Below, in pieces: positions 8,927 through 54,917 of a DNA stretch of 54,917 bases (position 1 is its first letter; each line of letters opens with the position of its first letter). The notes under the pieces are model-generated. The model was not told the origin of the DNA. It saw only the letters and a list, made by a program, of their open reading frames with translations, and did not search any database. The DNA comes from Patescibacteria group bacterium (GTDB lineage: Bacteria > Patescibacteriota > Minisyncoccia > Phycocordibacterales > Phycocordibacteraceae): assembly GCA_038064695.1 (NCBI GenBank), contig JBBTSO010000002.1, positions 38,252 to 93,168 of the forward strand. Reading direction: 5' to 3'. Both the position numbers and the translations under genes were made by a program.

Positions 8927-9003
8927 ATAAAAGAACAACGTGAAGGTTCTAGCTTTTAGCTTACAGGCTTTAGACTAAAAAAACAACGTAGAAAACGTCA
9001 CTC

Positions 9004-16805: not shown

Positions 16806-19800
16806 TTAACGAGCTACATCAAACGCCTGCGCGAGGGCAATCTTAAACCCGGTGAATGGATTTGAGTACGTTGTTTCAAGCGCGCGTGACAAAATTTCAA
16901 TGTACGACGCCATAGTTTCTAGTGACACCATGTGTGATTTTTCAAGAAGCGCAACGTGCTCAGATGAGGTATTTGCTTTGCGAGCGCGGAAGAGTGCGTC
17001 CAAGAGCGACACCGTATCAGTGATAGTCTTTGTTGCTGATACTCCACTTCCTTCAAGGTCACGGACTAAGCTGAAAACCGCATCGCGATTTCCCGTAAGG
17101 AGTGCTGAAACGAGTAACTCATTTACAGAATCTGATACTGCATGAACGGTCGCAGGCGACAGTACCTCTTTGATGTGGGTAAACCCGCGTGCTGGTGCAG
17201 AAACAATCGTTGCGTTCTGCGCGGTAATAATTGCGTGAAGGCGATCACTTGAGAGCAACACCCACCCATCTTCGCGAGGAATAGTACGTACCGCTTCATT
17301 TAAGATATCTCCAAAGACACGAAGTGTTTGCGCGCGGTCGGTTGAAAGCGTAAGTACTGCCGCCCGTGCCTCAGGAGAAAGAAGTACTCCCGCCGCGTTT
17401 GCGCGTGATTCAACTACTTCTGCTAATTCTGGAATCCCATCAACGGCAACTGGCGCCGCAACTGGAACAGGTGCTGGTGGAGTCATCACTGAAGGCGAAA
17501 TTGCACGAGAAGGCGCGTGGGCAAGAGTTGATTGGTGAATCGCTAATGTCGCAACAGGTGCTGGATGAGCGTGCTCAGTTTCGTAGTGTTCAGCGTTGTC
17601 GTATGCTACGTACTCCTGATCCTCTTCGTGACGATCAGCACGCTGTGGAGCAAAGGTAAATACTTTTCCTGCAATAAACTGCATACTCTGTTTACCTAGA
17701 ACCACGTACGAGATTCCAATACTCCATACCACTACCGAGAGCCAGAAGAGCGCCGTCAAAAGTGGTCCTGCTTCAAAGCCAGTGTAGGGAACTTGAGCAA
17801 GCGAAACGTACGCGGCGAGTACCTGACCACCAGGCGCCTTCGTGAGAGAAACAGTTGGCTGGTTTAATCCCCCTCCACAGTTACCCTGACATCCTCCGCC
17901 TCCTTTTTCTACTTCAACAATAGCTGAACAGGTAGTTGTTCCGTATGGTCCTGTAAAGGTTCCCGTGTACGTCGTAGTGTCTGAAGGGTACAGATCATCG
18001 GTCGTTCCTCCTGAAACAGGAGTGGTCGTTCCCACGTGGGTGATGGTTCCGTTGGAAACGTTGGTAGAAGTCCACGATACAGTGATCGATTCCCCTGTCT
18101 TAATTTTTGAATGACTGACCGTGAGTGTACATTGTGGCGCAGGTGTCGTTGGTGTGTAGGTAATAGTTACTGAACATGTTTTTGTTTCTCCTCCAACGCC
18201 CGTAACGGTTCCCGTGTATGTGGTTGTCTGAGTTGGGTTTACGGTATGTGTTCCAACAAAATCATGGACAGGGCCATCGTAGAGCGTAACGCTGTTTAAG
18301 ACTGCCTTGATAATATTGTCCGCGGTGTACGAAATGATGACTGCCTCTCCGGGAGTAGTAATGGTCGTTTTATTAGCAGAGAGAGTACAGTTCGGCGCGT
18401 CAGGTGGTGGAATTTCAATAGTCTTAGTACAGGTGACTGTTTTGTTTGTTGGTCCCGTTCCCGTGAGTTTATACGTATGTGTTCCCACACCAAGCACAGG
18501 ATTAAATGTCTTTGAACCATCAACGGGCAAGTTAACTCCAACCGTCGGAGAAGAGGTGAGCGGAACGACGACGACGCTTGAAACGTTGGTTGTATTCCAC
18601 GTTAGTTTTTCCTTCGTGAGTGTCAACGTACAGATTGGATCACCTGGTGGTGGCGGTAATACCTGCTTGTTTTTAAAGACTACTGCCGCACAAACTGAAC
18701 CTGCGGGTACATTTACTACTCCTCCTGTAGGGGTTACTGAAACCAATTCCCATGCACTCCCTGGGTCAATTTCGGTCACGGTGTGATTTCCTGGTGTGAC
18801 ATTGGTAAATGTTGCATCACCATTTGCGTCGGTGGTAACGGTTTTCGTGCCGCCATCAAGCTTAAAGGTGAACTGCGCGACCGGAGTGAGAATATTACCC
18901 ACGGTATCGTACGTTTCTTTTTTCACTTTTATACATCCAGGTCCTGGTGGGGGCGGAACAATAACGGTCTTTTGACACTGAGCAGAACCCCCCGGACCAG
19001 TAGCGGTCAAAAGGTACGTGTGGGTTCCCACACCAAGTGGCGGAACAAAATTATGCGAACCTGATAGTGGGTACGTACTTCCTGAAGACGCGGTCACGCA
19101 GGTAAAATTGTAACGGAGGTGTGGGTCGTTGCCGGAAGCTGGTACGACGCTCCACGCTGAACCATTCCACAAAGCAATGGTGTTATTTCCAGGACTTGAG
19201 AAGGTATCGGTTTGAAATGTTCCGTTGACACTCCCCGGATACACGATAGAACAAAGGCGGTCCGCAGTTGCTTTATTTGCTTTGAAGCTTGCGTTCCCCA
19301 AAGTTACTCCACCGTAGGTAGTTGCATCAGTTTGAAACGTTGCCGCGTGGTTTGTTTTAAAGGTCCCAAAGTCGCCGCTAAATACCGTGACACCTCCTGC
19401 TGAACCACCCGTGGCACCGGGCACTTGTGGAGAATTGGTCAACGGAACAATGGTAACGGTGTTGGCGTTGTTTGATGTCCACGAAATAGCATCTTTAGTA
19501 AGATCCAATGTACAAATCGGAGGATTGGGCGGCGGAGTAACCGTAACGGTGGTAGAACAGGTTGCGGTCCCTGAGTACGTTCCTTTTACGGTAGCAGTAT
19601 AAGTGATAGTTGACCCTACCTGTACTGACTTCGTTCCTGAAGAAACGATACCGGTTAGATTTTGTGTCGCAAGGACCCCTTTATCTATAGAAATTGATGA
19701 GGCGTAGGTAGTATGCCAATTAAGCGTAACAGGCCCCGCTGAGGCAAGTGTGTTAGGAGTTGCCCATAGTGAACACGTAGGAGTAATAGACCCACCGCCA

Positions 19801-20033
19801 CCGCCGCCCTCGCCACCTCCTCCTCCCCAACCACCGCCACCGCCAATAAATCCAGGACCATCCACGTAATGAGTACACCCCACGCAGTCAACAAACGCCT
19901 CCGCTACATTCGCATTAGGTGTGACAACTGCAGATATCGTGTCAAAAGTAACCCACGCGCCGAAGAGCATCACTCCGAATAGAGCGATTGAGGTGAACGT
20001 TTTATTGACGGTGTTTAGGTTCATGGAATTCAT
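16806..20033 (-). CDS. large multi-domain surface adhesin with an internal sortase-type sorting signal and a C-terminal cytoplasmic domain
   Basis: 1075 aa. It has an N-terminal signal/anchor and a Gly tract (GGGGGWGGGGGEGGGGGG). At least 6 Ig-like modules are each bracketed by Cys (e.g. PICTL...C..T[IV]). One module is Cna-B/SpaA-like (CIKVKKETYD...TVTEID...FKNKQ). VPYTG (17778..17792) is followed by TM segment LLTALFWLSVVVWSIGISYVVLG, then K, then about 295 further aa. Confidence 0.7.
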   Translation of the reverse strand: MNSMNLNTVNKTFTSIALFGVMLFGAWVTFDTISAVVTPNANVAEAFVDCVGCTHYVDGPGFIGGGGGWGGGGGEGGGGGGSITPTCSLWATPNTLASAGPVTLNWHTTYASSISIDKGVLATQNLTGIVSSGTKSVQVGSTITYTATVKGTYSGTATCSTTVTVTPPPNPPICTLDLTKDAISWTSNNANTVTIVPLTNSPQVPGATGGSAGGVTVFSGDFGTFKTNHAATFQTDATTYGGVTLGNASFKANKATADRLCSIVYPGSVNGTFQTDTFSSPGNNTIALWNGSAWSVVPASGNDPHLRYNFTCVTASSGSTYPLSGSHNFVPPLGVGTHTYLLTATGPGGSAQCQKTVIVPPPPGPGCIKVKKETYDTVGNILTPVAQFTFKLDGGTKTVTTDANGDATFTNVTPGNHTVTEIDPGSAWELVSVTPTGGVVNVPAGSVCAAVVFKNKQVLPPPPGDPICTLTLTKEKLTWNTTNVSSVVVVPLTSSPTVGVNLPVDGSKTFNPVLGVGTHTYKLTGTGPTNKTVTCTKTIEIPPPDAPNCTLSANKTTITTPGEAVIISYTADNIIKAVLNSVTLYDGPVHDFVGTHTVNPTQTTTYTGTVTGVGGETKTCSVTITYTPTTPAPQCTLTVSHSKIKTGESITVSWTSTNVSNGTITHVGTTTPVSGGTTDDLYPSDTTTYTGTFTGPYGTTTCSAIVEVEKGGGGCQGNCGGGLNQPTVSLTKAPGGQVLAAYVSLAQVPYTGFEAGPLLTALFWLSVVVWSIGISYVVLGKQSMQFIAGKVFTFAPQRADRHEEDQEYVAYDNAEHYETEHAHPAPVATLAIHQSTLAHAPSRAISPSVMTPPAPVPVAAPVAVDGIPELAEVVESRANAAGVLLSPEARAAVLTLSTDRAQTLRVFGDILNEAVRTIPREDGWVLLSSDRLHAIITAQNATIVSAPARGFTHIKEVLSPATVHAVSDSVNELLVSALLTGNRDAVFSLVRDLEGSGVSATKTITDTVSLLDALFRARKANTSSEHVALLEKSHMVSLETMASYIEILSRALETTYSNPFTGFKIALAQAFDVAR

Positions 20034-20035
20034 AA

Positions 20036-20650
20036 TTATAGTAATGGTTCTCGGGTTTTGTAATCTGCGGTGACGACGTATCGCTCCCCGGGATCTCCGA
20101 AGGAGTTACACGTTGAGAGAATTAAAGTTTTTTCACCTGCTTCAAGTGGAATCAATGCATTATCCGCGTTAACTAGTGATACTGAGGTAACGGTGTATTC
20201 ATACACTGCGTTGTCTGAGAATACCTGAATGGTATCGCCAGACTCAAGTTTCTGAAGGTCGTTAAACGCCTTAAACGCTTTGTTTTTTACAACTGGAAGG
20301 TAACTTTGGTGCCCAAAGAGGAAAATAGGCGCGTCCTCTCCAAGTAGTGCGCTGCCTGGGTAGCGTACTGCGCCAGCGAGAAGCGCCGCATCCAACACTT
20401 CAAGTACTGCCGATGTAGGATTTTCAATAGTGGTGTCAACACCAATATCTTTAATGACGATCCGTGTCGGCGTTTCAATCACGACTTCTTGAGAAGTGCT
20501 CTTCGTTTCTTTCGTGTTTTTTTCAACGGATATTTTTGGTTCCGGTACAAAATCAATACCGTACAAAAAAACCGACGTTAAAAAGAACATAAGAAAAAAG
20601 ATTCCAAGGAATCTAAGGCTGGTGCGGGTGGTGTTGTGGTCACTGTTCAT
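20036..20650 (-). CDS. sortase-family transpeptidase
   Basis: N-terminal TM segment, catalytic His (IFLFGHQS), Cys (TLILSTCNS) and a downstream Arg (GERYVV). Its stop lies 2 nt before the adhesin start. ATG at 20650 preferred over the TTG at 20719. Confidence 0.8.
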   Translation of the reverse strand: MNSDHNTTRTSLRFLGIFFLMFFLTSVFLYGIDFVPEPKISVEKNTKETKSTSQEVVIETPTRIVIKDIGVDTTIENPTSAVLEVLDAALLAGAVRYPGSALLGEDAPIFLFGHQSYLPVVKNKAFKAFNDLQKLESGDTIQVFSDNAVYEYTVTSVSLVNADNALIPLEAGEKTLILSTCNSFGDPGERYVVTADYKTREPLL

Positions 20651-20744
20651 GAATGTTCGTTCGCTACAACGGGGAAAATAAAATTCACTTTCCGTATCTT
20701 CAGCGTGCGAAAACCTCAACGTGTATGCTCAGGTTTCAAAGAGT

Positions 20745-35389: not shown

Positions 35390-36394
35390 TTAGGCGAGTC
35401 CCCACTCTACTCGCCGCTGTTTTCCTTGATCGCGCAAGTTTTGAATAATTTCACTAACTTTAACTGGTGCAGACGTACTCAAATGCTTATCACGAAATGC
35501 CGCAGACGTTAAATTGCCGTCCTGATCAAAATCAAATTGGGCCGACTCAAGAAAGTTGCGAATACCACCCATTTCATTCCAATTTTTAAGGTTGATTTCC
35601 TTTCCAATGATGCCCATCGTTATGTAGTCAATGACAGGAGCGTGTGCAATAGTAATGCCGTGCACATGCTGGTCGGGAAATTTATCCTCCATATTTTTTG
35701 CTTCTCGTGCAAACTCTTCTAGCTGGTTTGCCGCCTCATCCTCAGGAGTGCTTTCACTGATAAATCGCGTAGGATTAAAATAGCGAAGCACATCTTCTTT
35801 TGTATATATAGAATCGACAAGTGGTAAAATTTCCTTGACCAGTTGGTTTACCTCACTTTTACGAGTAACTTGAATTTTGCTTAAAAGGTTATGGACGTGG
35901 GCTGCCATTTCTTTTTCATTTTTTGCCATAACTCTTAAATCTTCTTGCGCCTCATTCCATACTTCAGCAACATTATTTCCGGTGGTTAAACCAAGCCCCG
36001 GAACGTCTGGCACATTCGTTACCACCCAACGTTTTGAAGGATTATGTACCGCTGACGCCATCATTTCTTCATCGGCGTAGTCAATAAACTCAACAGAGTC
36101 TTCATTTGCGTCTCGCGCCAACTCTTTCAAGGCTTTTTCAAGATGTGAACGCGTATCTAACGCGCGCTCCACATTTGACGGCATCACATAAAACACCGAC
36201 CCTAGTGGGTGTCTCATAATATCTGCATACGTATCACGCGCCTCATCCTCAATATCTTCTTTCGCTTCAGGAGAGAGACTTTCTTCGTAGGCACTCCGCC
36301 TTGCGTGACGTCTCAAGTCGCGTCTATTTTCCTTATGTAGTGGGTTATCTAAATCTCCAAAAGCTGCTTCAGACATGGTGCTTTTACTATACAA
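35390..36394 (-). CDS. hypothetical acidic cytoplasmic protein (334 aa)
   Basis: Long clean ORF 16 nt downstream of the FAD-oxidase gene, so probably co-transcribed. No motif that I recognise. Confidence 0.55.
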   Translation of the reverse strand: MYSKSTMSEAAFGDLDNPLHKENRRDLRRHARRSAYEESLSPEAKEDIEDEARDTYADIMRHPLGSVFYVMPSNVERALDTRSHLEKALKELARDANEDSVEFIDYADEEMMASAVHNPSKRWVVTNVPDVPGLGLTTGNNVAEVWNEAQEDLRVMAKNEKEMAAHVHNLLSKIQVTRKSEVNQLVKEILPLVDSIYTKEDVLRYFNPTRFISESTPEDEAANQLEEFAREAKNMEDKFPDQHVHGITIAHAPVIDYITMGIIGKEINLKNWNEMGGIRNFLESAQFDFDQDGNLTSAAFRDKHLSTSAPVKVSEIIQNLRDQGKQRRVEWGLA

Positions 36395-36410: not shown

Positions 36411-38078
36411 CTACCGTTCTGGTTTTGGCAAGTCGAGGTGTGCAAATGGTTCATAGTCACCCCGCACCACTTTTTTCCCAGGATTAAAAATATCAAAAGG
36501 ATCAAAAATTGATTCAACCGATTTAAACAACCCAGTCATTGCGGGACCAAACATGCGCTCAACGTACGGGGTTCGCGCGTACCCATCGTTATGTTCTCCA
36601 CTTATGGACCCCCCGTACTTCAACACGAGCGCATATACTTTTTCAGACAACTCGGTAACGAGTGTCACACCGTCAGTGCGCTTCGGGTCAATTAACGGAA
36701 TGATATGAAAGTTTCCATCTCCTACGTGGCCAGCAACCGTATAGGTTAAGTCATATTCTTTTAAAATACTATTCAGATGTGGTAGAAACTCGGGAAGGGT
36801 TGCGGGAGGTACCACGAAGTCTTCAATAAAAGGCGCCGTGCGCTTCCCGCGCACTTTTTTTCGAAGAAGATTGAAACTTTCTCGTCGCACAACCCAGTAC
36901 TTTCGTGCAGCGCGCTCGTTTTTCGCTAAAAAGATTCCCGGTGATGTTTTTGTCTGACGCAACTCTTGAATGAGTTTTTTGGCGCGCAAAAGCGCGTCGG
37001 AAGACGCGTCTGAACGAAATTCAACGAGGAGCACGAGTTTGGGAACACCACTCGTCAACAAGCGCCACACTTCGGGGAGAAACGCGAAACCGAGTCCAAT
37101 AATATTCGTTTTCATCTGGAGCGCAAATTCAGGAAAATATTTTGCGGCAAGCGTAAACGTGTTGTCGTCGTAGGATTCAAAACTGTCGGGCGCGTGTTTC
37201 AAAATAGTGGGAACGAGCGACCCTAAATCAGCAATGTCATTAACGAACACCACCGCCATAGACGCGTATTTTTTAGGACGCACGAGGCGGAAGCGAATTT
37301 TGGTAATAATACCCATCGTCCCCTGACTTCCCGTCATGAGACGCGCTACATTGAGTGAGTCAACGCCATCCCCCACATCCCACAACGCGTATCCTGAGGA
37401 ATTTTTGACCACGCGAGGGCGGTGTTCCTCTATCGTCTGGCCATGTTCGCGAATGATATTGCTCAGCGCTCGGTATGCCTCTCCGATAAATGATTGCTCC
37501 TGAAGTTTTTCTTTAAGCGCCGCTCCACTTACCTTTTTTAGGGTGTGAACTTCTCCATCAGCGAGCACCATTTCAAGCTCCTCTACGTATCGCGCAGTTT
37601 TCCCGTACTTCAAATGTTTTTCGCCTCCCGCGTCATTTCCTACCATTCCACCCACCGTACATATTTCACGGCTGGCGGTATAGGAAGGGAGTTCAAGATT
37701 TTTCTTTTTTGTCTCTCGGTCAAAGTCGCGGAAGTAGACCCCTGGCTCAACAACAGCGTATCCTCCCTCTTCGTCTTCTCCCACCTCTATAACTGAGTTG
37801 AAGTGAGGAAGCATATCAACCACGACAGATTCAGTGAGGGGGCCACCGCTCATATCAGTGCCCGCGGCACGCGGAGTTAAAGAAATCACGTTTCCTTTCT
37901 TTTTTTCTTGCGTCACGTACGACACCAGCCGCTGTACATCTTTTGTATTTTTTGGCCTGACAACAACAGTGGGTGTTACCTTAAAAAGGCTCGCGTCGCG
38001 GCTATATTTTTCTCTTGTTTCATCACTATCATCCACTTCCCCTTCAAGAAGGGCGCGCAATTCGAAAGCTAAAGTCAT
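36411..38078 (-). CDS. FAD-linked oxidase (GlcD / D-lactate dehydrogenase-like, PCMH-type FAD-binding domain)
   Basis: 555 aa. FAD-binding region PRAAGTDMSGG...GGMVGNDAGG and C-terminal oxidase region HVGDGNFH...SGEHNDG. TATAAT lies 6 nt upstream of the ATG. Confidence 0.75.
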   Translation of the reverse strand: MTLAFELRALLEGEVDDSDETREKYSRDASLFKVTPTVVVRPKNTKDVQRLVSYVTQEKKKGNVISLTPRAAGTDMSGGPLTESVVVDMLPHFNSVIEVGEDEEGGYAVVEPGVYFRDFDRETKKKNLELPSYTASREICTVGGMVGNDAGGEKHLKYGKTARYVEELEMVLADGEVHTLKKVSGAALKEKLQEQSFIGEAYRALSNIIREHGQTIEEHRPRVVKNSSGYALWDVGDGVDSLNVARLMTGSQGTMGIITKIRFRLVRPKKYASMAVVFVNDIADLGSLVPTILKHAPDSFESYDDNTFTLAAKYFPEFALQMKTNIIGLGFAFLPEVWRLLTSGVPKLVLLVEFRSDASSDALLRAKKLIQELRQTKTSPGIFLAKNERAARKYWVVRRESFNLLRKKVRGKRTAPFIEDFVVPPATLPEFLPHLNSILKEYDLTYTVAGHVGDGNFHIIPLIDPKRTDGVTLVTELSEKVYALVLKYGGSISGEHNDGYARTPYVERMFGPAMTGLFKSVESIFDPFDIFNPGKKVVRGDYEPFAHLDLPKPER

Positions 38079-38084
38079 GCGAGC

Positions 38085-38120
38085 ATTATATACTGACCCC
38101 TCAGCACCGTAGGGTATACT
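38085..38120. promoter_or_regulatory. 52-bp divergent control region with back-to-back -10 boxes
   Basis: Minus strand: TATAAT (38090..38085), 6 nt from the ATG at 38078. Plus strand: TATACT (38115..38120), 10 nt from the ATG at 38131. Confidence 0.45.
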
Positions 38121-38130
38121 AGTCTTTAGT

Positions 38131-38835
38131 ATGGATACAGAAAAACAGGCTCACGAAACTCTCGTAGCAGAACTGAACGACCCAAAAACATTAGAAGAGT
38201 ATAAAAAATCGTGCGACAACGCTCGCGTTGCACTGCTCCCCCGCCTCCTGGGAAATTTTTTGGTATGGGCAGGCAACACACTCTACGGAGATAAACCGAC
38301 CTACCTTAAATTTCGCGCCGTGGAAGTCATTGCACGCGTTCCCTACCACTCCTGGGCAGCGGTCGCGCACACACTCCTCACTATGTTCTACCGCGACGAA
38401 AAACGCGCCCTCAAATTATGTGAAGACAACAACTTTGCGCGACTCTCCCAAGAAAATGAAACTATGCACGTTATTGTCATTTCAAAGCTCGCCACGGAAG
38501 AACAGAAAGACAACATGCTCGTTCATACCATTATTCCGATGCTCTTTGCCTTCTTCTACTACTGGATGAGTTACCTAATGTACCTCTTTCAGCCACGCTG
38601 GTCTATGCAACTCAACTACCTCTTTGAAGATCACGCATTCAGCCAGTACGACCGTTTCTTAAAAGAAAACGAAGAAACGCTTAAAAACAAGTTGGTGACG
38701 AGCGACTTTCTATTGTGGTATGGTCGCGACCCACTGTCACAGTACGAATTCTTTCAATCGGTACGCAACGACGAGTTGATACACCGAAACAAATCAATCC
38801 ATGGGACGAGTCGCGCACAGAATGGGATACAATAA
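38131..38835 (+). CDS. alternative-oxidase / plastid-terminal-oxidase (AOX/PTOX)-like di-iron carboxylate protein
   Basis: Four motifs in the AOX/PTOX order: AVEVIARVPYH (LETxAxVP-like), QENETMHVI (NExMH), YLFEDHAFSQYDRFL (LEEEA / ExxH-like) and VRNDELIHR (RxDExxH). Confidence 0.7.
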   Translation: MDTEKQAHETLVAELNDPKTLEEYKKSCDNARVALLPRLLGNFLVWAGNTLYGDKPTYLKFRAVEVIARVPYHSWAAVAHTLLTMFYRDEKRALKLCEDNNFARLSQENETMHVIVISKLATEEQKDNMLVHTIIPMLFAFFYYWMSYLMYLFQPRWSMQLNYLFEDHAFSQYDRFLKENEETLKNKLVTSDFLLWYGRDPLSQYEFFQSVRNDELIHRNKSIHGTSRAQNGIQ

Positions 38836-38839
38836 AAAG

Positions 38840-39805
38840 ATGAAGTACGACTTTGATCTTGTCGGGTTAGGCGACACCGTCACGGATGCATTTATTTTGC
38901 TGGAGGACGCGAGCGTCCACTGCAATATAGACAACGAAGATTGCACCATTTCTATGCGCTGGGGAGACAAAATCCCCTACAAAGACCTCGTTGTCGTGCA
39001 CGGCGTAGGAAACAGCGCAAACGCGACCGTTGCCGCTACACGACTTGGGCTTAAAAGTGCACTGGTGACGGACATCGGGAAAGACCAATTCGGAGCAGAA
39101 ATACTCTCTAATTTTAAAAAAGAGGGTCTTAGTACGAAATTCATACGGAGTCACCGTGATATTCCCACGAACTACCATTTCGTTCTTTCATTTGAAGCCG
39201 AAAGAACTATTTTGGTAAAACATCAGATGTATCCACACCACCTTCCGAAAGGTTTAGAAAAAACGCGTGGATTGTATCTTTCATCTTTAGGGAGCGACAC
39301 CGAGGTGTACCACCAGGAAATTGCGGAATTCGTTGATGCACACCCTGAAATGTTTGTTGCGTTCCAACCAGGCACCTTTCAAATAAAACTAGGTATTGAA
39401 AAACTTGCACGTATTTATAAAAACACTAACCTCTTTTTTGCCAACAAAGAAGAGTACCAGCGCATTTTAAATCTTCCTGAAGAAAAAGAGGTGTCCGTAC
39501 TTTTGAAAAAAATGTCAGAACACGGCCCGAAAACTCCTATACTCACCGACGGAAGAAACGGCGCGTACGCGCTCAATGCTGGCGAGATTATTCACGTTCC
39601 TATGTTTCCTGACCCCGCTCCACCTGTTGAGCGAACCGGCGCGGGAGACGCATTTTCTTCAACTACTGCTGCGTATGTGCTCCAAGGAATGCCGCTCTAT
39701 GACGCTATGGTCCGCGGAACCATAAACAGCGCGTATGTGGTACAAAAAATAGGTGCGCAAGCAGGGCTGTTGACTAAAAAAGAGCTGGAATCAAAGCTCA
39801 TTTAG
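38840..39805 (+). CDS. PfkB-family carbohydrate/nucleoside kinase
   Basis: N-terminal GLGDTVTDAF, and C-terminal anion-hole/catalytic motif TGAGDAFSS. The ATG lies 4 nt after the PTOX-like stop. Confidence 0.8.
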   Translation: MKYDFDLVGLGDTVTDAFILLEDASVHCNIDNEDCTISMRWGDKIPYKDLVVVHGVGNSANATVAATRLGLKSALVTDIGKDQFGAEILSNFKKEGLSTKFIRSHRDIPTNYHFVLSFEAERTILVKHQMYPHHLPKGLEKTRGLYLSSLGSDTEVYHQEIAEFVDAHPEMFVAFQPGTFQIKLGIEKLARIYKNTNLFFANKEEYQRILNLPEEKEVSVLLKKMSEHGPKTPILTDGRNGAYALNAGEIIHVPMFPDPAPPVERTGAGDAFSSTTAAYVLQGMPLYDAMVRGTINSAYVVQKIGAQAGLLTKKELESKLI

Positions 39806-41755: not shown

Positions 41756-42874
41756 TTATCGCACTGACGTGTATCCTCCCAAAACACCATTTTTAGAAAG
41801 CACGATTTGCCAGAGCTGATTGTTTTGTCGTGAACGAAACGCACCGGCCATTGAAAGTAGGTAGTACCTCCACATACGGTAAAATCGTTCATTGTATTTT
41901 TCTTTAAGTTGCGGCCACGCAGCATCAAAATTTTTCATCCACGCCATGAGTGTGGGGTCGTAGTAGGGTCCAAAGTTATGCCAATCCTCCATAACAAATA
42001 TTCCTTCAATAGCTTCAGCAATCTGTTTAATTGAGGGGAGGAGTCCGTTAGGAAAAATATATTTATGAAACCACGGATCCGCGAGCGTGGTCGTTTTATT
42101 ACTCCCAATGTGGTGCAAAAGAAATAACCCATCATCTTTTAAAATATTTCGCACCGTTTTCATCATAGTGCGGTGATTTTTATACCCCACGTGTTCAATC
42201 ATTCCCACGCTCACCACTTTGTCATATGAACCCGTAAGGTCTCGATAGTCGCATTTTAAAATTTCAACAGGCAACCCCTTCGTGTACGATTGTGCGTACG
42301 CAATCTGTTCATCCGAAATACTGACGCCGGTTACGGTGCATCCATATTTTTCTGCAGCAAATTTGGCGAGTCCTCCCCACCCGCAGCCAATATCAAGCAG
42401 GTGGTCTTCTTTTTTTAACTGTAGTTTCCTACAAATGAGGTCAAGTTTATCTTCTTGCGCCTTGTTCAAGTCGTCTTTTGTCTGTGCAAAGTAGCCACAC
42501 GTGTATTGGTTGTAGGGGTCAAGGAACGACATATAGAGGTCATTTCCGAGATCATAATGCTCATCGATGACTTTTCGAGCGCCTCGCTTACTTTGTAAAT
42601 TTAGTATTTTTGATTTTAAAATATAGAAGAGTGTTTCAAAACTCATTCCCACTTTTTCATTAACGCGCGCACGAATGAGGCGGCAAACCATCTCGTCAAG
42701 CGCCTCGCAGTCCCACCACCCGTCCATGTAGGATTCACCAAGCGCAAGCGAACCGCCAGTCAAAATTCGCTGATAGAGCTGCTCGTTATGAATCTGCGGG
42801 TCATAGGGATGTGGCCCGTTTATGGTGAGTCCGGCGTAAGAAAGTAGTGTATGAAGTGTCTGCTTCGGGTTCAT
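41756..42874 (-). CDS. cfa: cyclopropane-fatty-acyl-phospholipid synthase family SAM-dependent methyltransferase
   Basis: 372 aa. YDLGNDLY, the SAM motif LLDIGCGWGGL, and MIEHVG. Confidence 0.85.
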   Translation of the reverse strand: MNPKQTLHTLLSYAGLTINGPHPYDPQIHNEQLYQRILTGGSLALGESYMDGWWDCEALDEMVCRLIRARVNEKVGMSFETLFYILKSKILNLQSKRGARKVIDEHYDLGNDLYMSFLDPYNQYTCGYFAQTKDDLNKAQEDKLDLICRKLQLKKEDHLLDIGCGWGGLAKFAAEKYGCTVTGVSISDEQIAYAQSYTKGLPVEILKCDYRDLTGSYDKVVSVGMIEHVGYKNHRTMMKTVRNILKDDGLFLLHHIGSNKTTTLADPWFHKYIFPNGLLPSIKQIAEAIEGIFVMEDWHNFGPYYDPTLMAWMKNFDAAWPQLKEKYNERFYRMWRYYLLSMAGAFRSRQNNQLWQIVLSKNGVLGGYTSVR

Positions 42875-47989: not shown

Positions 47990-49270
47990 TTATCGTAAAC
48001 GAATGCCACGCAAACGAACACCCAGGAGCCTGATGATGCGCGGATAACTTACCAACTGCGTTTCCTCGGCACCAAACGTCCAAAATGTTGCCGAAGCACG
48101 AGTGTTGTTGTATATCGTTAAAATGTCCATTGAGTGTAGGGCTCGCGAGTATACGCGAACATCGTCAATGGTTCCGGCATAATAAAGATCGCGTCGCCCG
48201 ATGTAAAAAGAGTTGGTGGAGTTCGACATACCGGTGTAGGTGCCCGCGTTTGAATTTGAGGTTGAGACAGTAGACCCGTTCGCATAAAGAAACTGCCCCG
48301 CGTTAGTTTCAGATCCGGTGTAGGACACCGCGACGTGATTCCACACTCCGACGGTCAAGGCGTTTGCTGCTGACTTTCCGATGTAGTTTGAAGTACCGTT
48401 GTGGGTTGTACGCCAAATAAAACTTGCTCCTGAGTTGAAAATGTTTAAGTAATACTCCCCGACGTTGAAGTCATCGGCCTTGGTCACCACCCCGCCTGCG
48501 CTTGAAGCAGTTGGTTTTGTCCAGACGAGCACTGACATTGGCTGATCCTGTCCGCCGCTCGTAAAAGAAAGCGAGTCGTTGTCAGCAACTAAAATATGGT
48601 CATCAACACCATCGAATTCGAGTGCACCATCCACCTGCCCTTTTACCTGATCCGCAGTGTCCATACTTCCCGTGTCGGTTCCGTTGTTAGTACCTAGTGA
48701 GTCTGCAATGCCTCCTGCGCCGGCCACCGTGGGGTCTTCGGTTAGGTTCCACACAGATACTTCACCCAAAGCACCGAACGTCCCCGCCTCGTTGGACACG
48801 TCCGATGCTGCATTGTCATCATACCCATAGTAAAGGAGAACGTTTTTTGCGGTCGTTGAAGAAATGTCGGTTGGCTCAACCCAAAGTACAAACTCTCCCG
48901 TCGTTTGGACATATTTTTCAAAGTAGAAGTCGAGAAGCGTGCCACTGTCAGCATTGCAGTCAGTTCCACTGGTCACCGCAACATCGACAGGCGTGGTAGT
49001 ACCGGAGGTAGCGGTTACTTCAAAGATGCGTCCCGCTGAAGAAGTTGCCGCGAGGGTTGAAATGGTAGAGGTTGCAACAAGCGCAAATCCAAGCGTTGTG
49101 GTGGTTGCGATACCGCCTGAGTTTCCCCCTGTAGCCATCGTCAATTTTCGGCAATACTGATAGTCAGTGTTATACCATGCGGCAAAAACGGAAACAGGTA
49201 TAAAAAATACAAACGCGAAAATGCTGATAAACAAGAAAATGTACACTTGCTCTTTTTTGCTGTATTGCAT
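47990..49270 (-). CDS. secreted DUF2341-like plus LamG/concanavalin-A-like lectin domain protein
   Basis: Signal/anchor, then WYNTDYQYCRKLT...LDFYFEKY...VLWVEPT...LLYYGYD (DUF2341-like). This is followed by ALEFDGVDDHILV...WNHVAVSY...IDDVRVYSRAL (Laminin_G_3-like). Confidence 0.65.
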   Translation of the reverse strand: MQYSKKEQVYIFLFISIFAFVFFIPVSVFAAWYNTDYQYCRKLTMATGGNSGGIATTTTLGFALVATSTISTLAATSSAGRIFEVTATSGTTTPVDVAVTSGTDCNADSGTLLDFYFEKYVQTTGEFVLWVEPTDISSTTAKNVLLYYGYDDNAASDVSNEAGTFGALGEVSVWNLTEDPTVAGAGGIADSLGTNNGTDTGSMDTADQVKGQVDGALEFDGVDDHILVADNDSLSFTSGGQDQPMSVLVWTKPTASSAGGVVTKADDFNVGEYYLNIFNSGASFIWRTTHNGTSNYIGKSAANALTVGVWNHVAVSYTGSETNAGQFLYANGSTVSTSNSNAGTYTGMSNSTNSFYIGRRDLYYAGTIDDVRVYSRALHSMDILTIYNNTRASATFWTFGAEETQLVSYPRIIRLLGVRLRGIRLR

Positions 49271-49272
49271 AG

Positions 49273-52200
49273 TTATTCTTCGTGGTGAGCGGTGGTATCT
49301 TCGAGTGTTGCACTAACGGCCTCCTGTTCAACGGTTGAGGTGGCTGTTTCAACATTCTCTGACAGTGCGAAGTCGGAAACAACAGAGAGATCGGCATTCA
49401 CCGTCGTCGTGGTCGTTGCTGTTTCAATAATGTTCGTAATGACGACGGTATCACCATTTACTTCAACCTGCTCCCCCACCACAACCGTTCGTGTTGCTTC
49501 ACCAATGTTCCCGTCTGTGTCGGTCGCGCGATACGTAATGGTATATGAAGTCGACGTTGATGTATCTAGAGTTACTACACTGACTTCCGCATCGCCAATG
49601 AACGTGTGAATGCCAAGATTTTGATTAAGATTATCGGTAACCGATGCGCCGAGATCCACGTAGGTTGCACCCACGGCAACGAACGCGGGGTTATTTCCAA
49701 AGAGCGTAATGACTGGTGCTTCTGTGTCAGTAGGTATAGCTACATCGATGGAAGCCGTTGCACCTCCGCGAAGCGCTAAAAGCTCCTTTAATTCTCCTTC
49801 GGTAATGCACGTTTCGCCAATGCACAACTGATTCGTAATATGAATCTCCCGTGTCATAAAACGTTCTGAAAGTGCTGAAAGCTGTGCCGTATTTTCGGTA
49901 ACGACAGCATAGAGATCACGCAATGCCCCGAGCACACTTGCAAGAAGGTCGGGTACACTCATACCGGCAAAAAGTGTTCCTGATTCAAGTGACGCAAAAA
50001 ACGTTTCTGTGTTCTCGGTTGTTTCAGGAACAAGAGAGTCAAGCGCAATGCCATTTACCTTATCAAATTGTTCAAAAATAATACTGATCTTTGCGCGCTT
50101 CTTACCATCTTGAGTCACTGCAGTAACGGTGTTCCAGTCAAGAGGCTGCGCTGCTTTCGCTACTACATGAGATATAAATGCTTCGCCGTCATCTTTCATG
50201 GCGTGTCCCGACACGGCAGAGGTGATGAGGTTGTCGCCCGGTTCAATTGATTCCTCCTCACCCTGGGTCACCCACACGTCGCCGTTACCCACGGCCATAA
50301 TGAGGTACGGGTTTTCCTCCGAAAGAGGTTTAGCTGGCTCCTGGAGCGCGAGCATGACGCCCATAACATTCGATGCGTTTTTTTCGGAAGCGAGCGTGAC
50401 ACCGTATATTGGCTCCGATTCTGCGTTTTCACTCTCGTTCGCGTTTTGACCAGTATAGGCAACCAGCATACCGCGCGGAATGTTCTCACTTGTCGTCGCG
50501 TAGTGGGCGCCGGTGAATGCGCCGTACGTAACGGTATTACCAGCAATAGAAATAGTGGCCTCAGAGGTTCCATCCTGACGGAAGCGCACCAAAACGCCAT
50601 CACTGTCGTTACGGTTAATGTTGAATTCTCCGATTGATACAAACCCTGCCGTTCCGTCAGCACAAAGTGAAATTCCTTCAAGTGCAGAATTTCCAGTGCA
50701 ATTTTCCGCCGTTCTCCCTATAATCACGTCACTTGCAAAGTAGCCACTGCCTGCAATATCAACCCAGAAAAAATCTGCGAGTGTTGTGCCTTTAGAAGCT
50801 CTGAACACTTTTCCGGTCGACGCACCGGTATCAAATGGATAGATAAACTGAAATGCACCGTTATCGTTCGCACCAAAACTGGCGTTTGCAACTTCAACTA
50901 AATAACCGGTGCGTGCGCTTGTAGTTTGAGCCCAAAATGCCGGTTGGTTAATTGAATATCCGTATAACGACTGTGCTCCAGTAGCCCCAGGGGTGACCGT
51001 CACTTTACCATTTGGTGTAGTTGAACCGATACCGATGTTTCCAGCGTTATTAATAATGAATGACGTCGCAGTTGATGAACCAACCACAAACTGGTTGACG
51101 TCACCCGCGACAGGGTTCACGGCAAGTTTTGCGAAAGGAGTGGTACTACCGATGCCCACGAGACCAGTTGAAGCATTGAAATGGGCGATCGCGGAAGCGT
51201 CAAGGGCGCGAAATTCAAAACCTTGTGTTGAAACATTAAAGTAGAGGCCAGCGTCCTGATCTCCGTCGTACCTAAACGCATAATCGTCACCACCAACAAG
51301 GTAATCTCCAGTTCCAGAAAAAGAGAGATCGCCCCCCGAACTCACCCTGAGTAATCCCCCGCTTCCTATACTGAGCCGCGAAGCAGGGGCCGCATCATCA
51401 ATTCCCACATTCCCCGTATTCGTAATTATGAAAGAGGTTGCCGTACTTGATCCCACCACAAACTGGTTCGTGTCGCCCGCGACAGGGTTCACGGCAAGTT
51501 TTGCGAAAGGAGTGGTGGTACCAATGCCGACAAGTCCTGTGGTCAAAGCCGAGATACGCTCATTTCCCCCACCACTCGCCGCATCATATATAGAGAGACG
51601 ACCATCGGAACCATTGTTTAAGCTCCATGTTGAAGTACCAATGTTCACGGTTCCCGCCCAAAGTGCATTCCAGCGTGAAGCACTTGCGCCTAGGTCATAT
51701 GCAGAAAGGTTATTGGTATACGTTCCGTTCGGAATGATGCTATTTGAGGCAAGGTTCCCCGCAACCGAAAGTTTTGCAAAAGGTGACGTCGTACTCACGC
51801 CAACGTTACTATTTGCTTCAAGAATAGTGAGTGCCGTTTCAGTTGACGTCGCAAACGTCGAGGGAGAGGAGGTGGCGAGGTACAGGTTGCCCCCAGCGTT
51901 TCGGAAGGTCCACTGACTTGAGGTTAACGAGCCATCGGTCAAGGCGAGCTGGGGAGCAGTCGATGATGCGACGGTGAGTGCCCATCGAGGTGTGGTGGTA
52001 CCGATACCCACCCAGCCAGAGGTGAAGGAGATGGAGCCGCTTGCGCCGTCAGTCCACTGCGAGGTAGAGATGTTGGACCAACTTCCTCCTGAATTTTTCA
52101 CCTGGATGGTGCCGGTGCTGTCGCGAATACCGTATCCCAAGGTTCCGGAAGTGCCCGCCCAGTTGATGTAGCGTGAGGCTTCTTGGAAGACAAGGTTTGA

Positions 52201-54917
52201 GTTGGATCCCGTGTCACCGATGTAGACGTCAGAGCCATAAGCGCTTCCGATGACCACCTGTTCGGAACCTGAGGTGGTGTCAACGCGGAAGAGCGGTGCC
52301 GCCGTTGTCGAGGTGGCGATGGTCCAGGCGTACTTGTTGTTGTTGATGACCGTGGTGGTTGCCGCCGCAGTGGTGAAGTCGAGAAGTCCGCCAGTTATTG
52401 AGAGGTTGGTGGTTGAGGCGTTGGTGACGGTGAGTTTTGAGAGGGCGCTGTCGAAGGTGAAGGCGGCGCTTGAGGTTAAGGTGTCGGCGTCTGACCAGAA
52501 TGCGACACGCGTGGAAGCACCGGATCCATCAATGGTTCCTGAACCCCCGCCGACACACGTATCGTTAATTGCATAGCACCCAGTCGTAATGTTGTAGCCA
52601 ACATTTGATGTGGAGGTTGCTGATCCTGAAATGTTTAATCCCGAAAGAGTCGTCGTGCCGAAGCCGTCAGCAGCGGTTGAAAGAAAGACAGTGGCATTTG
52701 ATGATGATGCAATCTGGAAGAGCGATGTTGTTTGACCGCCTGACGCTTGTACCGCAAGAGTCGCGTATGGCGTGGTGGTGCCAACGCCCAAGCGAGAACC
52801 GGTAAAGACAAAGCTTGCAGTTGAGGCCAGGGTATCTGCTGACGACGTGTAGAGTACCGTGTTTGTACCACCAAAGGTAGCGAGTCCCGTCCCTCCGCGT
52901 GCCACGTCGAGCGCGCCTGAATCAACGTTCAAGGTTCCTACCCCTCCCGAGGTGTATACAACACCGTCAGAGGTTAAGTTTGAAAGTGTTGCAATATTTT
53001 GCGACGTATTGACCGTTACATCCCCCGCACTGTAGGTAAGTCCTGTACTGAACGTAGTAGTCGCCACCCAACTTGGTACTCCGGAGACCAAGGAAAGAAT
53101 CTGTCCATTGGTGCCAGCAGAGGTGGTGGCGAGTCGTGACGTGCCATTGCCCAGAAGCAGCGTGTTGGCTTGGAGGTTTGCCCAGCCAGTACCGCCGTTG
53201 GCAATGGCGAGGATGGAAGAGCCAACGTCGGAGACGAGGTCAATGGTGGCGGTGGCAACCACGCCGGCGGTTGCCTTAAGGAAGCCGGTTAAGGTACCGA
53301 GGGTAAAGGTATTGGAGACGATGAGTGCGGAGGTTGATGCTTGCCCCGAGATGGCGATGTTGGTGGAGGTGGCGTTGGTGAAGATGGCGGTTGAGGGAGT
53401 GGCGGCACCAATCGGCGTATTCTCAATGGTGCCACCAGAAATGGTTAAGTTGTTATCAACCTGTGCATCGCTTGCCGTTCCCACGAGATTGGCAAAGTTA
53501 ATATTCAAAGAGGAGGTGGCAACCCATGATGGTCTGCCAGTTGTGTAGTCTTGTGTGAGAAAGCGACCAGCGCCTGAGGTGGTAGCAAGTGCCGTAAGGA
53601 CGGTGGAGCCCGCTCCGAATAGGAGTTGACCATCGGCAACCGAGGAGAGTCCAGTTCCTCCACCTGCTACGTTTAACGTACCTGAAGTTGAAGGAGTAAA
53701 CGTAAATGTACTGCCGGAATTGGTGATTGATGTACCAAGTGTAAGACCGTTGAACGATTGCGTCGACGTAGCAAGAGTGACTGCGCCTGTTTGTGCCGAA
53801 CCATATGTTTGTTGCAATGAAGAAACACCGTTATTAATGGAACTTGTTGCAACCCATGTGGGGATGCCACCAGAGAGTGCGAGAACATATCCATTGGTGC
53901 CGGCACTGGTGGTGGCAAGCGCTGACGTACCGTTCCCGTACACCACTGCTCCCGATTGAATATTTCCCCACCCGGTGCCGCCTTGTGGAACCGAGAGCGC
54001 GGTCGTCAGACCAGAGAGCGATGTAATGTCAGAGTTTGCACCACTTGCTGCCGCACCAAGCGTGGTGCGCGCATCTCCTGCCGTGGTGTCATCTAAAAGT
54101 CCGCGGATGAATGAGGTGAGGGTGGTCAACGCAGCAGTGCCACTCCCCGTGAAATATGGAAGCGAATCTGCAGCAGAGGTAAGTCCCGCAAGCGCGGCAA
54201 GTTCGGTGTCAAACGCTTGAACATCGGTGCCAATTGCAAGTCCGAGGTTGGTACGTGCACCACTTGCAGTAGTTGCACCGGTACCTCCATAAAGAATACC
54301 AACCGATGTCGTTGCTGAAACGACACCGGCGTTGGCTTGGAGCGGCCCGTTCAATGAACCAATGGTGAGTGTTGAATTAAATGTATTGGCGCCAGTCCAC
54401 GTGTTTGAGGTATATGTTTTTGGAATAGTCGTTGACGCGTGAATAAATGAATTGATATTCGAGTCGGCAGCAGTATCGTCAACCGTGAGTGCATTTCCGG
54501 AAACAGTAAGTCCGGTTCCTGCGAATTCGTTGATGGTGTCGCCGCCGATCACAATGTTCCCGCCGAAGGTGACGTTACCGCCGGTGTCAATTGAAGTAGT
54601 TGCCGTCCCCCCGAAGTACGCACTGTACGCAGACAGTTGGGTTGATGATGCACGGGTGAATTGCTGGAGAGCAGTCCACGTGTTCGCGTTTCCGAGGTTA
54701 AGGGCGGCAGTGACAGCAGCAGTCTCCGACCCACTTCCCGAAAGCGTGAGGGTACCTGCACCTGAGTCAGCGAGTGTAGCTACGTAGTTTCCCGTCGTAT
54801 CAGTCCCTAATGCAACAGCGTTAGCGTCAATGGTTGCGGAACCTCCCAAATACGTAAAGTCACCATGATCCCCATCCGCAATCTCTCCCGCGGTGATTGA
54901 GGTACCGAGGTCCGCGG
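49273..54917 (-). CDS. giant repeat-rich surface protein with phage tail-fibre-like repeats (more than 1880 aa; 5' end beyond the window)
   Basis: The frame stays open from 54849 to the window edge (...ADLGTSITAGEIADGDHGDFTYLGGSA...). GGTG(W/L/A) modules recur at least 5 times. A tail-fibre-like ARTNLGL...VQAFDTELAALAGL...PYFTGSG...LT segment is present. A 124-aa module is duplicated. A C-terminal DUF5011-like Ig domain reads PVITLFGNNPAFVAVGATYVDLGASVTD...TYRATDTDGN. Confidence 0.75.
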   Translation of the reverse strand, partial: ADLGTSITAGEIADGDHGDFTYLGGSATIDANAVALGTDTTGNYVATLADSGAGTLTLSGSGSETAAVTAALNLGNANTWTALQQFTRASSTQLSAYSAYFGGTATTSIDTGGNVTFGGNIVIGGDTINEFAGTGLTVSGNALTVDDTAADSNINSFIHASTTIPKTYTSNTWTGANTFNSTLTIGSLNGPLQANAGVVSATTSVGILYGGTGATTASGARTNLGLAIGTDVQAFDTELAALAGLTSAADSLPYFTGSGTAALTTLTSFIRGLLDDTTAGDARTTLGAAASGANSDITSLSGLTTALSVPQGGTGWGNIQSGAVVYGNGTSALATTSAGTNGYVLALSGGIPTWVATSSINNGVSSLQQTYGSAQTGAVTLATSTQSFNGLTLGTSITNSGSTFTFTPSTSGTLNVAGGGTGLSSVADGQLLFGAGSTVLTALATTSGAGRFLTQDYTTGRPSWVATSSLNINFANLVGTASDAQVDNNLTISGGTIENTPIGAATPSTAIFTNATSTNIAISGQASTSALIVSNTFTLGTLTGFLKATAGVVATATIDLVSDVGSSILAIANGGTGWANLQANTLLLGNGTSRLATTSAGTNGQILSLVSGVPSWVATTTFSTGLTYSAGDVTVNTSQNIATLSNLTSDGVVYTSGGVGTLNVDSGALDVARGGTGLATFGGTNTVLYTSSADTLASTASFVFTGSRLGVGTTTPYATLAVQASGGQTTSLFQIASSSNATVFLSTAADGFGTTTLSGLNISGSATSTSNVGYNITTGCYAINDTCVGGGSGTIDGSGASTRVAFWSDADTLTSSAAFTFDSALSKLTVTNASTTNLSITGGLLDFTTAAATTTVINNNKYAWTIATSTTAAPLFRVDTTSGSEQVVIGSAYGSDVYIGDTGSNSNLVFQEASRYINWAGTSGTLGYGIRDSTGTIQVKNSGGSWSNISTSQWTDGASGSISFTSGWVGIGTTTPRWALTVASSTAPQLALTDGSLTSSQWTFRNAGGNLYLATSSPSTFATSTETALTILEANSNVGVSTTSPFAKLSVAGNLASNSIIPNGTYTNNLSAYDLGASASRWNALWAGTVNIGTSTWSLNNGSDGRLSIYDAASGGGNERISALTTGLVGIGTTTPFAKLAVNPVAGDTNQFVVGSSTATSFIITNTGNVGIDDAAPASRLSIGSGGLLRVSSGGDLSFSGTGDYLVGGDDYAFRYDGDQDAGLYFNVSTQGFEFRALDASAIAHFNASTGLVGIGSTTPFAKLAVNPVAGDVNQFVVGSSTATSFIINNAGNIGIGSTTPNGKVTVTPGATGAQSLYGYSINQPAFWAQTTSARTGYLVEVANASFGANDNGAFQFIYPFDTGASTGKVFRASKGTTLADFFWVDIAGSGYFASDVIIGRTAENCTGNSALEGISLCADGTAGFVSIGEFNINRNDSDGVLVRFRQDGTSEATISIAGNTVTYGAFTGAHYATTSENIPRGMLVAYTGQNANESENAESEPIYGVTLASEKNASNVMGVMLALQEPAKPLSEENPYLIMAVGNGDVWVTQGEEESIEPGDNLITSAVSGHAMKDDGEAFISHVVAKAAQPLDWNTVTAVTQDGKKRAKISIIFEQFDKVNGIALDSLVPETTENTETFFASLESGTLFAGMSVPDLLASVLGALRDLYAVVTENTAQLSALSERFMTREIHITNQLCIGETCITEGELKELLALRGGATASIDVAIPTDTEAPVITLFGNNPAFVAVGATYVDLGASVTDNLNQNLGIHTFIGDAEVSVVTLDTSTSTSYTITYRATDTDGNIGEATRTVVVGEQVEVNGDTVVITNIIETATTTTTVNADLSVVSDFALSENVETATSTVEQEAVSATLEDTTAHHEE

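Follow-up and report, generated by a model that had tools for sequence, protein, structure and literature searches.

A 54,917-nt (~55-kb) stretch of a Patescibacteria genome, which was the part of this genome analysed and is referred to below as the window, contains an open reading frame (ORF) of 234 codons at positions 38131-38835. We conclude that its product is a genuine di-iron protein of the alternative oxidase/plastid terminal oxidase (AOX/PTOX) family, that it belongs to a clade specific to Patescibacteria, and that genes of this clade stand alone, in many different genomic contexts. An earlier, sequence-only reading of the same DNA had recognized the family from four Glu/His motifs and had treated the protein as part of a functional unit with the products of two adjacent genes, a flavin adenine dinucleotide (FAD)-linked oxidase and a PfkB-family kinase. 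The family assignment held in the analyses described below; the functional unit was not supported.

Identity of the 234-residue protein

The protein scored 44.2 bits (E = 2.3e-11) with the Pfam AOX family (PF01786; cut-off 22.7 bits), covering profile positions 50-209 of 216, and matched no other Pfam family. The same family was precomputed in 119 of 120 listed relatives, and NCBIfam contained no model for the protein. The iron-ligand motifs occur in the AOX/PTOX order: E65 in AVEVIARVPYH, E110 and H113 in NETMH, E166 in LFEDHAFSQY, and E215 and H218 in DELIH. The six ligands, together with a Tyr (Y173) located seven residues past the third Glu, were invariant in a set of 42 relatives (56-79% identity to the window protein), in which 59 alignment columns were invariant altogether; Y173 was also invariant in a broader family alignment. 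Given the Pfam score and the invariance of the ligands, the motifs are more than a chance resemblance.

An AlphaFold2 model of the protein was confident and all-helical (pLDDT 88, pTM 0.87). When the model was compared with the Protein Data Bank (PDB) using Foldseek, the top 14 matches were all chains of the trypanosomal AOX (TAO; probability 1.00, TM ~0.58). Assignment to COQ7, MiaE, rubrerythrin, or ferritin was considered and rejected, as none of these gave a Pfam match at E values of up to 0.1 and the Foldseek probabilities were at noise level (0.11 for COQ7, 0.25 or less for ferritins). Searches of PDB sequences with the single sequence or with a profile of the clade did not reach TAO. 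TAO was matched (E = 2.3e-12) once the profile had been broadened with outgroups and labelled PTOX, and all motifs lined up; the ligands of the 234-residue protein align with E123, E162/H165, E213, and E266/H269 of TAO, whose catalytic Tyr is Y220 (numbering anchored on Arg-118 and Thr-219). Thus, of the structural check proposed earlier, the predicted fold agrees with TAO, and the conservation of the ligands comes from the alignment.

Two helices of the model are hydrophobic. The more hydrophobic one, at residues 129-153, had a best 19-residue Kyte-Doolittle mean of 1.46, which is under the typical transmembrane value. Helices that are hydrophobic yet sub-transmembrane fit a monotopic, interfacial membrane protein. 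In TAO, helices alpha1 and alpha4 border a cavity (PMC9246349), and by analogy the alpha1 counterpart is proposed to form one wall of a membrane-facing substrate channel. The features of the gene are as follows.

38131-38835, plus strand: AOX/PTOX-family di-iron carboxylate oxidase, 234 aa, predicted to be membrane-bound, member of the Patescibacteria-specific clade
38233-38286, plus strand: residues 35-52, hydrophobic helix (boundaries from the AlphaFold2 model and hydrophobicity), proposed counterpart of TAO alpha1
38323-38325, plus strand: codon of iron ligand E65
38458-38460, plus strand: codon of iron ligand E110
38467-38469, plus strand: codon of iron ligand H113
38515-38589, plus strand: residues 129-153 (MLVHTIIPMLFAFFYYWMSYLMYLF), most hydrophobic helix, proposed counterpart of TAO alpha4
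38626-38628, plus strand: codon of iron ligand E166
38647-38649, plus strand: codon of the catalytic Tyr, Y173, seven residues past the third Glu
38773-38775, plus strand: codon of iron ligand E215
38782-38784, plus strand: codon of iron ligand H218

Relationship to PTOX and AOX

The best labelled matches of the protein were "alternative oxidases" encoded on cyanobacterial plasmids (Acaryochloris, Nostoc; 30% identity, E = 1e-14), followed by plastoquinol terminal oxidases of cyanophages (27% identity). In a representative library, about a dozen 50%-identity clusters scored above 180 bits, after which scores dropped to ~120 bits or less. The phylogeny suggested along with the sequence-only reading was obtained in rough form, as a neighbor-joining tree with 100 bootstraps. 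In this tree, the Patescibacteria proteins were monophyletic (bootstrap 100); their sister group (bootstrap 100) was a clade of short, unlabelled AOX-family proteins from other bacteria, and the two clades together sat beside, not within, labelled PTOX. The Patescibacteria clade thus appears nearer to PTOX than to mitochondrial AOX. By tree and by host, the protein lies outside the classical PTOX subfamily, though PTOX-type residues are present.

With PTOX/IMMUTANS proteins of cyanobacteria, algae, plants, and cyanophages, the clade shares the Pfam family, the E/ExxH/E/ExxH ligands, and the Tyr seven residues past the third Glu. The PTOX-like context residues noted earlier were confirmed by the motif table: the clade has ARVPY, ExHA, and YDxFL, whereas mitochondrial and proteobacterial AOX have AGVPG (LETVAGVPG) and EEEA (LEEEA) in place of the first two. 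The short size is also akin to that of cyanobacterial forms. Unlike PTOX, the clade resides in non-photosynthetic, respiration-poor hosts with no known plastoquinone pathway, is separate in the tree, and has motifs of its own (VEVIARVPYHSW, DNETMHV, FExHAFxQY, and VRNDELIHRN), a Gln for the Thr/Ser that precedes the Tyr, and a conserved N-terminal segment of ~55 residues. TAO (PDB 3VV9, 3VVA) was the sole significant structural match, with the ligands and the Tyr in register and with hydrophobic helices that would flank a channel to the di-iron site; however, identity in the structural alignment was 14-17%, the clade's own profile misses TAO, and the long N-terminal arm of AOX/TAO is missing from the Patescibacteria protein.

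Members of the sister clade (P0136, P0143, P0145-P0149, and others) resemble the Patescibacteria proteins in length (~220-290 aa) and in the K-F-x-x-x-E and ARVPYxxW motifs, in line with the bootstrap-100 joining of the two groups. They differ in the motifs DNEQWHL, FEDHAEHEY, and DERxH, and in residing in genomic contexts outside the candidate phyla radiation (CPR). Two such contexts were inspected. The gene for P0147 (294 aa; locus L091, 392-5788) lies divergently from neighboring genes for a Fur-family regulator, three rubrerythrins, and a rubredoxin, and an MsrA/MsrB fusion is encoded downstream of it; together these form the oxidative-stress island of an anaerobe, a non-CPR bacterium. Another member adjoins MaoC and PQQ-propeller genes. 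Among classical forms, the plasmid-borne PTOX-type "alternative oxidase" of Acaryochloris marina S15 (L086, 1-2193) is encoded directly downstream of the nitric-oxide reductase large subunit.

Distribution and habitat

A total of 925 relatives of the 234-residue protein were found, and at least 224 species-representative genomes contained a confirmed match. The hosts were mostly Paceibacteria, along with Nomurabacteria, Yonathbacteria, Kaiserbacteria, Adlerbacteria, and UBA2163. All 80 genome loci and all named relatives came from Patescibacteria or from metagenome-assembled genomes (MAGs) with similar contexts. We conclude that the clade is specific to Patescibacteria, and that it has been inherited there long enough to diversify over at least 224 species-level genomes. 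Several MAGs titled Bacillota, Bdellovibrionales, Gammaproteobacteria, or Saccharibacteria (L054, L059, L071, L073, and many "Saccharibacteria" loci) carry the Patescibacteria-type gene. The ClpB neighborhood upstream of the gene in L054 is also found in a Patescibacteria MAG from Hainich (L033), and the deviating titles may be mislabels or reflect contaminated bins.

An identical gene is present on contig Hain_H41_01um, whose habitat is given by the record name. Hainich well H41 is oxic, with a mean dissolved O2 of 5.0 mg/L (PMC12577380).

The reduced host genome and the lack of obvious partner genes would suit a relic, in which a PTOX gene gained by horizontal transfer is decaying or no longer functional. 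We consider this highly improbable: the frame is intact, the base composition is like that of the flanks, the invariant columns described above persist over 42 relatives, hundreds of species keep the gene, and the family is monophyletic in Patescibacteria. Recent horizontal transfer and a pseudogene were rejected on the same grounds of composition, conservation, and monophyly.

Genes adjacent to the AOX-like gene

The immediate neighbors of the AOX-like gene in the window are as follows.

36411-38078, minus strand: FAD oxidase, 555 aa, FAD-linked D-2-hydroxyacid dehydrogenase-like flavoprotein (FAD_binding_4 and FAD-oxidase_C)
38079-38130, no strand: divergent intergenic region of 52 bp between the FAD oxidase gene and the AOX-like gene
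38840-39805, plus strand: PfkB-family sugar kinase (ribokinase-like), with alternative ATG starts at 38822 and 38801

Direct inspection of the sequence placed the three ORFs, the 52-bp divergent gap, and the 4-nt spacing in front of the PfkB gene exactly as they had been described before. The spacing results from the AOX-like stop codon TAA at 38833-38835 and the ATG at 38840. On identical contigs, gene callers picked the ATG at 38822, which gives a 14-nt overlap with the AOX-like ORF; the PfkB start called in one relative aligns with the start of the 38840 form. The PfkB gene is probably co-transcribed with the AOX-like gene in this lineage.

According to the sequence-only reading, this arrangement encodes a dedicated, co-regulated chain, in which the FAD oxidase oxidizes a D-2-hydroxyacid (e.g. 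D-lactate) and reduces a quinone, the AOX-like protein re-oxidizes the quinol with O2, and the PfkB gene is co-transcribed. The 52-bp divergent arrangement is in favor of such a chain, and the same trio was found again in L003 and in L004-L006 (AOX identity 70-73%), and only there. These relatives are, however, collinear with the window throughout (S2, RF-1, L31, SLT, L25, ABC transporter, transketolase). Because the whole neighborhood is collinear, conservation of the trio says little. In 78 of the 79 other species-representative genomes (54-66% identity), neither an FAD oxidase nor a PfkB gene was present within 8 kb on either side of the AOX gene. The trio is thus confined to genomes with an AOX identity of at least 70%, and synteny of the gene pair, which holds in collinear close relatives, is almost entirely absent beyond them.

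The lone exception was L082, where the AOX gene and an orthologous FAD oxidase gene (34% identity, E = 8e-95) meet tail-to-tail across a 13-bp gap. By a rough estimate (~79 genomes with ~700 genes each), the chance of one such adjacency is ~0.2, and we regard this independent juxtaposition as a weak hint of association. Both genes also co-occur in more distant genomes; in the Adlerbacteria MAG RIFOXYC1_FULL_48_26, they are present on different contigs.

The FAD oxidase is widespread in Paceibacteria (62-76% identity). The AOX gene was not found beside any of four more distant FAD-oxidase orthologues (L092, L093/L094, L095, and L096). In L092 (1-5647), the gene order is rpe, tktN, tktC, TAL, PfkB, 33 bp, FAD oxidase, L25, SLT; the PfkB gene is directly divergent from the FAD oxidase gene and lies beside TAL and transketolase, with no AOX gene. 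Since this block exists without it, the AOX gene looks inserted in the lineage of the window, and the simplest reading is that it entered an older, divergent FAD-oxidase/PfkB pair in a single lineage. By synteny, PfkB belongs with the pentose-phosphate block. In the Adlerbacteria loci L093 and L094 (5685-8402), the FAD-oxidase orthologue is convergent with genes for an NAD_binding_1 reductase (479-493 aa), an ApbE flavin transferase, and an FMN_bind protein, possibly a flavin-based electron-transfer set in a CPR genome. In the window, an acidic ORF of 334 aa that matched neither Pfam nor NCBIfam (35390-36394, minus strand) separates L25 from the FAD oxidase gene; it is missing in the collinear relatives L003 and L004, where the FAD oxidase gene directly follows L25.

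The properties of the FAD oxidase itself bear on the chain in both directions. Its Pfam matches were FAD_binding_4 and FAD-oxidase_C (161.5 and 105.3 bits), and its closest PDB relatives were LctD, glycolate oxidase, mitochondrial D-LDH, and D-2HGDH. Enzymes of these types pass electrons to ETF, Fe-S partner subunits, or cytochrome c, and are not known to reduce quinone directly. The FAD oxidase matched NCBIfam YdiJ, far under the cut-off, at positions 27-539 of 1018 only; this is the N-terminal flavin half, and the Fe-S quinone-coupling half of YdiJ is missing. Among window ORFs of at least 150 aa, no quinone-coupling element (Fe-S CCG domain, GlcF or a GlcF-like gene, ETF/ETF-QO, or membrane anchor) was found. 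On the other side, an FAD-linked D-2-hydroxyacid dehydrogenase works in the oxidizing direction and needs an electron acceptor, and none is evident; the idea of a chain is therefore not absurd, but gene order gives it no support. D-lactate dehydrogenase was reported in 25% of Hainich Patescibacteria MAGs and read as a fermentation gene (PMC8672522), a count in which we suspect the present FAD-oxidase family to be included.

Promoter elements in the divergent region did not strengthen the case for co-regulation. The back-to-back -10 boxes described earlier exist as hexamers: TATAAT on the minus strand (38085-38090) and TATACT on the plus strand (38115-38120), each ~7-10 nt from its own start codon, were read directly, and the latter was also picked up by a promoter consensus scan. 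However, promoter-like matches in the region were no more frequent than expected by chance (4 found versus 5.1 +/- 2.4 in shuffled sequence), and the promoter/terminator scan was rejected as evidence of co-regulation. A GGTATACTA/TATACT element 5' of the AOX start is common to the window and two relatives, L003 and L004, while the length of the divergent spacer among relatives is inconstant (24, 52, and 93 bp). Taking these observations together, we consider the dedicated chain improbable and treat the FAD oxidase as a neighbor of the AOX-like oxidase, not a demonstrated partner.

No conserved partner gene was found next to the AOX gene over the 80 loci. The commonest neighbor was a convergent gene for a PduO-type cobalamin adenosyltransferase (adjacent in ~15 loci, not co-transcribed); other immediate neighbors encoded an EamA transporter, riboflavin kinase, a CcdA/DsbD-like protein, a Cyt-b5-domain protein, an AI-2E transporter, and ClpB. 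Riboflavin kinase was encoded within ~1 kb downstream of the AOX gene in ~8 loci, in two of them adjacently. A protein of 235-239 aa with a C-terminal, heme-binding cytochrome-b5-like domain is encoded two genes from the AOX gene, ~560-635 bp downstream, in L023, L026, L043, and L052; in eukaryotes, cytochrome b5 is an electron donor to other membrane di-iron enzymes. In L007 (7255-7962), L009, and L030, which belong to Nomurabacteria and Yonathbacteria, the gene for a DsbD_TM/CcdA-like thiol-disulfide membrane protein immediately precedes the AOX gene in the same orientation, with a 38-41-bp gap.

Other genes of the window

ORF annotation bore out the earlier description of the window as part of a reduced, respiration-poor Patescibacteria genome with genes of the non-oxidative pentose-phosphate pathway and gap. 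The window encodes TrmD, RNase R, RNase III, a NusB-NUDIX fusion, DnaE, ThrRS, GyrB, PheS, EF-Ts, S2, RF-1, L25, sortase, and large surface proteins; its carbon-metabolism genes are a split transketolase, rpe, rpiB, and gap. No respiratory or quinone-biosynthesis genes were found among ORFs of at least 150 aa, and no photosynthesis genes were found in the window. The PfkB protein scored 113.2 bits with Pfam, and its best NCBIfam match was ribokinase (102 bits, under the cut-off of 299).

Several further genes of the window were recorded. The apparent NusB-NUDIX fusion (8048-8938, minus strand) is 296 aa long. An SMC_N-family protein (4233-6404, minus strand) has only 723 aa; a canonical bacterial SMC is expected to be longer. 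A sortase gene adjoins that of a 1075-aa SpaA-fold protein (16806-20719, minus strand), and a 1858-aa Ig-like surface protein is encoded next to a 426-aa Laminin_G_3 protein (47990-54849, minus strand); both pairs are probably attachment machinery. A cyclopropane-fatty-acyl-phospholipid-synthase-like methyltransferase (CMAS, 281.9 bits) is encoded at 41756-42874 on the minus strand, ~3 kb from the AOX gene. It has two copies in L003 and is worth recording, given that this lineage is thought to rely on lipids taken up from elsewhere.

Proposed function

The reading that we favor, with modest confidence, is that the protein acts as a stand-alone, monotopic, non-energy-conserving O2 reductase on scavenged quinol. 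By analogy with AOX/PTOX, the four-helix bundle would attach to the membrane's inner face through the two hydrophobic helices, and a lipid-soluble quinol would reach the di-iron center through a channel from the bilayer. There O2 would be reduced to water without energy conservation. The quinol would be taken from host or community membranes, because the lineage is reported to lack quinone biosynthesis. The role of the enzyme would be O2 scavenging and the disposal of excess reducing equivalents in oxic groundwater.

A precedent exists for quinol oxidases in such hosts. Parcubacteria lack quinone biosynthesis even where they encode bd or bo3 quinol oxidases, and host-derived quinones have been proposed (PMC4508563). 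Cytochromes bd and bo3 of some Parcubacteria and Saccharibacteria are similarly proposed to be O2-detoxifying quinol oxidases that operate without quinone biosynthesis or the rest of the chain (PMC4508563; PMC9938205, a study of New Zealand aquifers). They are heme-containing, multi-subunit, and electrogenic, whereas an AOX-type enzyme is heme-free, single-subunit, and non-energy-conserving, and requires iron only. Parcubacteria C7867-001, which was reported in 2015 to have cytochrome bd as its sole oxidase, with no mention of an AOX gene (PMC4508563), also encodes this AOX-family gene (L041, 8001-8648).

Residues around the presumed substrate site were compared with those of TAO, in which the phenol head of bound inhibitors forms hydrogen bonds with Arg-118 and Thr-219 (PMC9246349). 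The Arg-118 position is occupied by a basic residue, K60, which is Lys in 42 of 42 clade members, and the position of TAO A216 is Ala in 42 of 42. We take these two residues as support for the proposed function, together with the hydrophobic helices, the oxic habitat, and the stress island around the P0147 gene.

Several points weigh against the proposed function. The residue at the Thr-219 position (Q172) is Gln in 39 of 42 clade members, Glu in the sister clade, and Thr or Ser in classical PTOX; with this position changed to Gln, the substrate pocket would differ, and is best described as similar to that of TAO/PTOX, not identical. No quinone source or quinone reductase was identified in the 55-kb window. 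Both the clade and its sister clade are known as sequences alone, and the rough tree that joins them had a single TAO/AOX fragment as its outgroup.

Some of these observations would be accommodated if the AOX/PTOX scaffold used a non-quinol donor (a flavoprotein, a cytochrome-b5-like protein, or a thiol system) or carried out an O2-dependent modification of a scavenged lipid. A host lineage without quinone biosynthesis (PMC4508563) would be in keeping with this, as would the substitution by Gln, and by Glu in the sister clade, at the Thr-219 position. Redox genes are sometimes near (the Cyt-b5-domain protein in 4 loci, the DsbD_TM/CcdA-like protein upstream in 3, riboflavin kinase in ~8), and the CMAS-like gene of the window, at a distance of ~3 kb, suggests that acquired lipids are remodelled. 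However, none of these neighbors is consistent over the family, and the protein retains the full set of quinol-oxidase catalytic residues, the Tyr and the basic residue at the Arg-118 position among them. We know of no PF01786 member with a non-quinol substrate. We therefore view a non-quinol reaction as unlikely, although less so than the dedicated chain, and retain the oxidation of scavenged quinol as the preferred reading.

Discussion

Proteins of this clade are already labelled "alternative oxidase" or "ubiquinol oxidase" in databases. In a literature search for AOX combined with Patescibacteria, Parcubacteria, Paceibacteria, or CPR, no relevant paper was found. A survey of oxygen reductases in Patescibacteria covered heme-copper and bd oxidases only (PMC7507113), and two Hainich studies of CPR oxygen adaptation mention no AOX-type enzyme (PMC12577380, PMC8672522). 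According to a 2025 survey of oxygen-reductase evolution, from which MAGs were excluded, PTOX is confined to phototrophs and, among prokaryotes, AOX to Pseudomonadota (PMC7618691). The AOX/PTOX family may have a third, previously undescribed branch in Patescibacteria and in a sister group of other non-photosynthetic bacteria, namely a heme-free, single-subunit O2 reductase fed by host quinone or by a non-quinol donor; we put forward this proposal tentatively, and find the case for and against it close to balanced. If true, PTOX-type enzymes could no longer be said to be limited to phototrophs, and CPR bacteria of oxic groundwater would gain a means of direct O2 consumption.

Since the local gene pair is not conserved, the Patescibacteria-wide clade is the more interesting of the two. 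The usual picture of CPR/Patescibacteria is one of fermenters that have neither electron-transport chains nor terminal oxidases, although many of them thrive in oxic groundwater. The clade sharpens the question of where a cell unable to make quinones obtains quinol or another reductant, which bears on the use of host membranes by episymbionts. The PTOX-like clade adds a candidate O2-consuming enzyme to Patescibacteria, and widens the known host range of the family.

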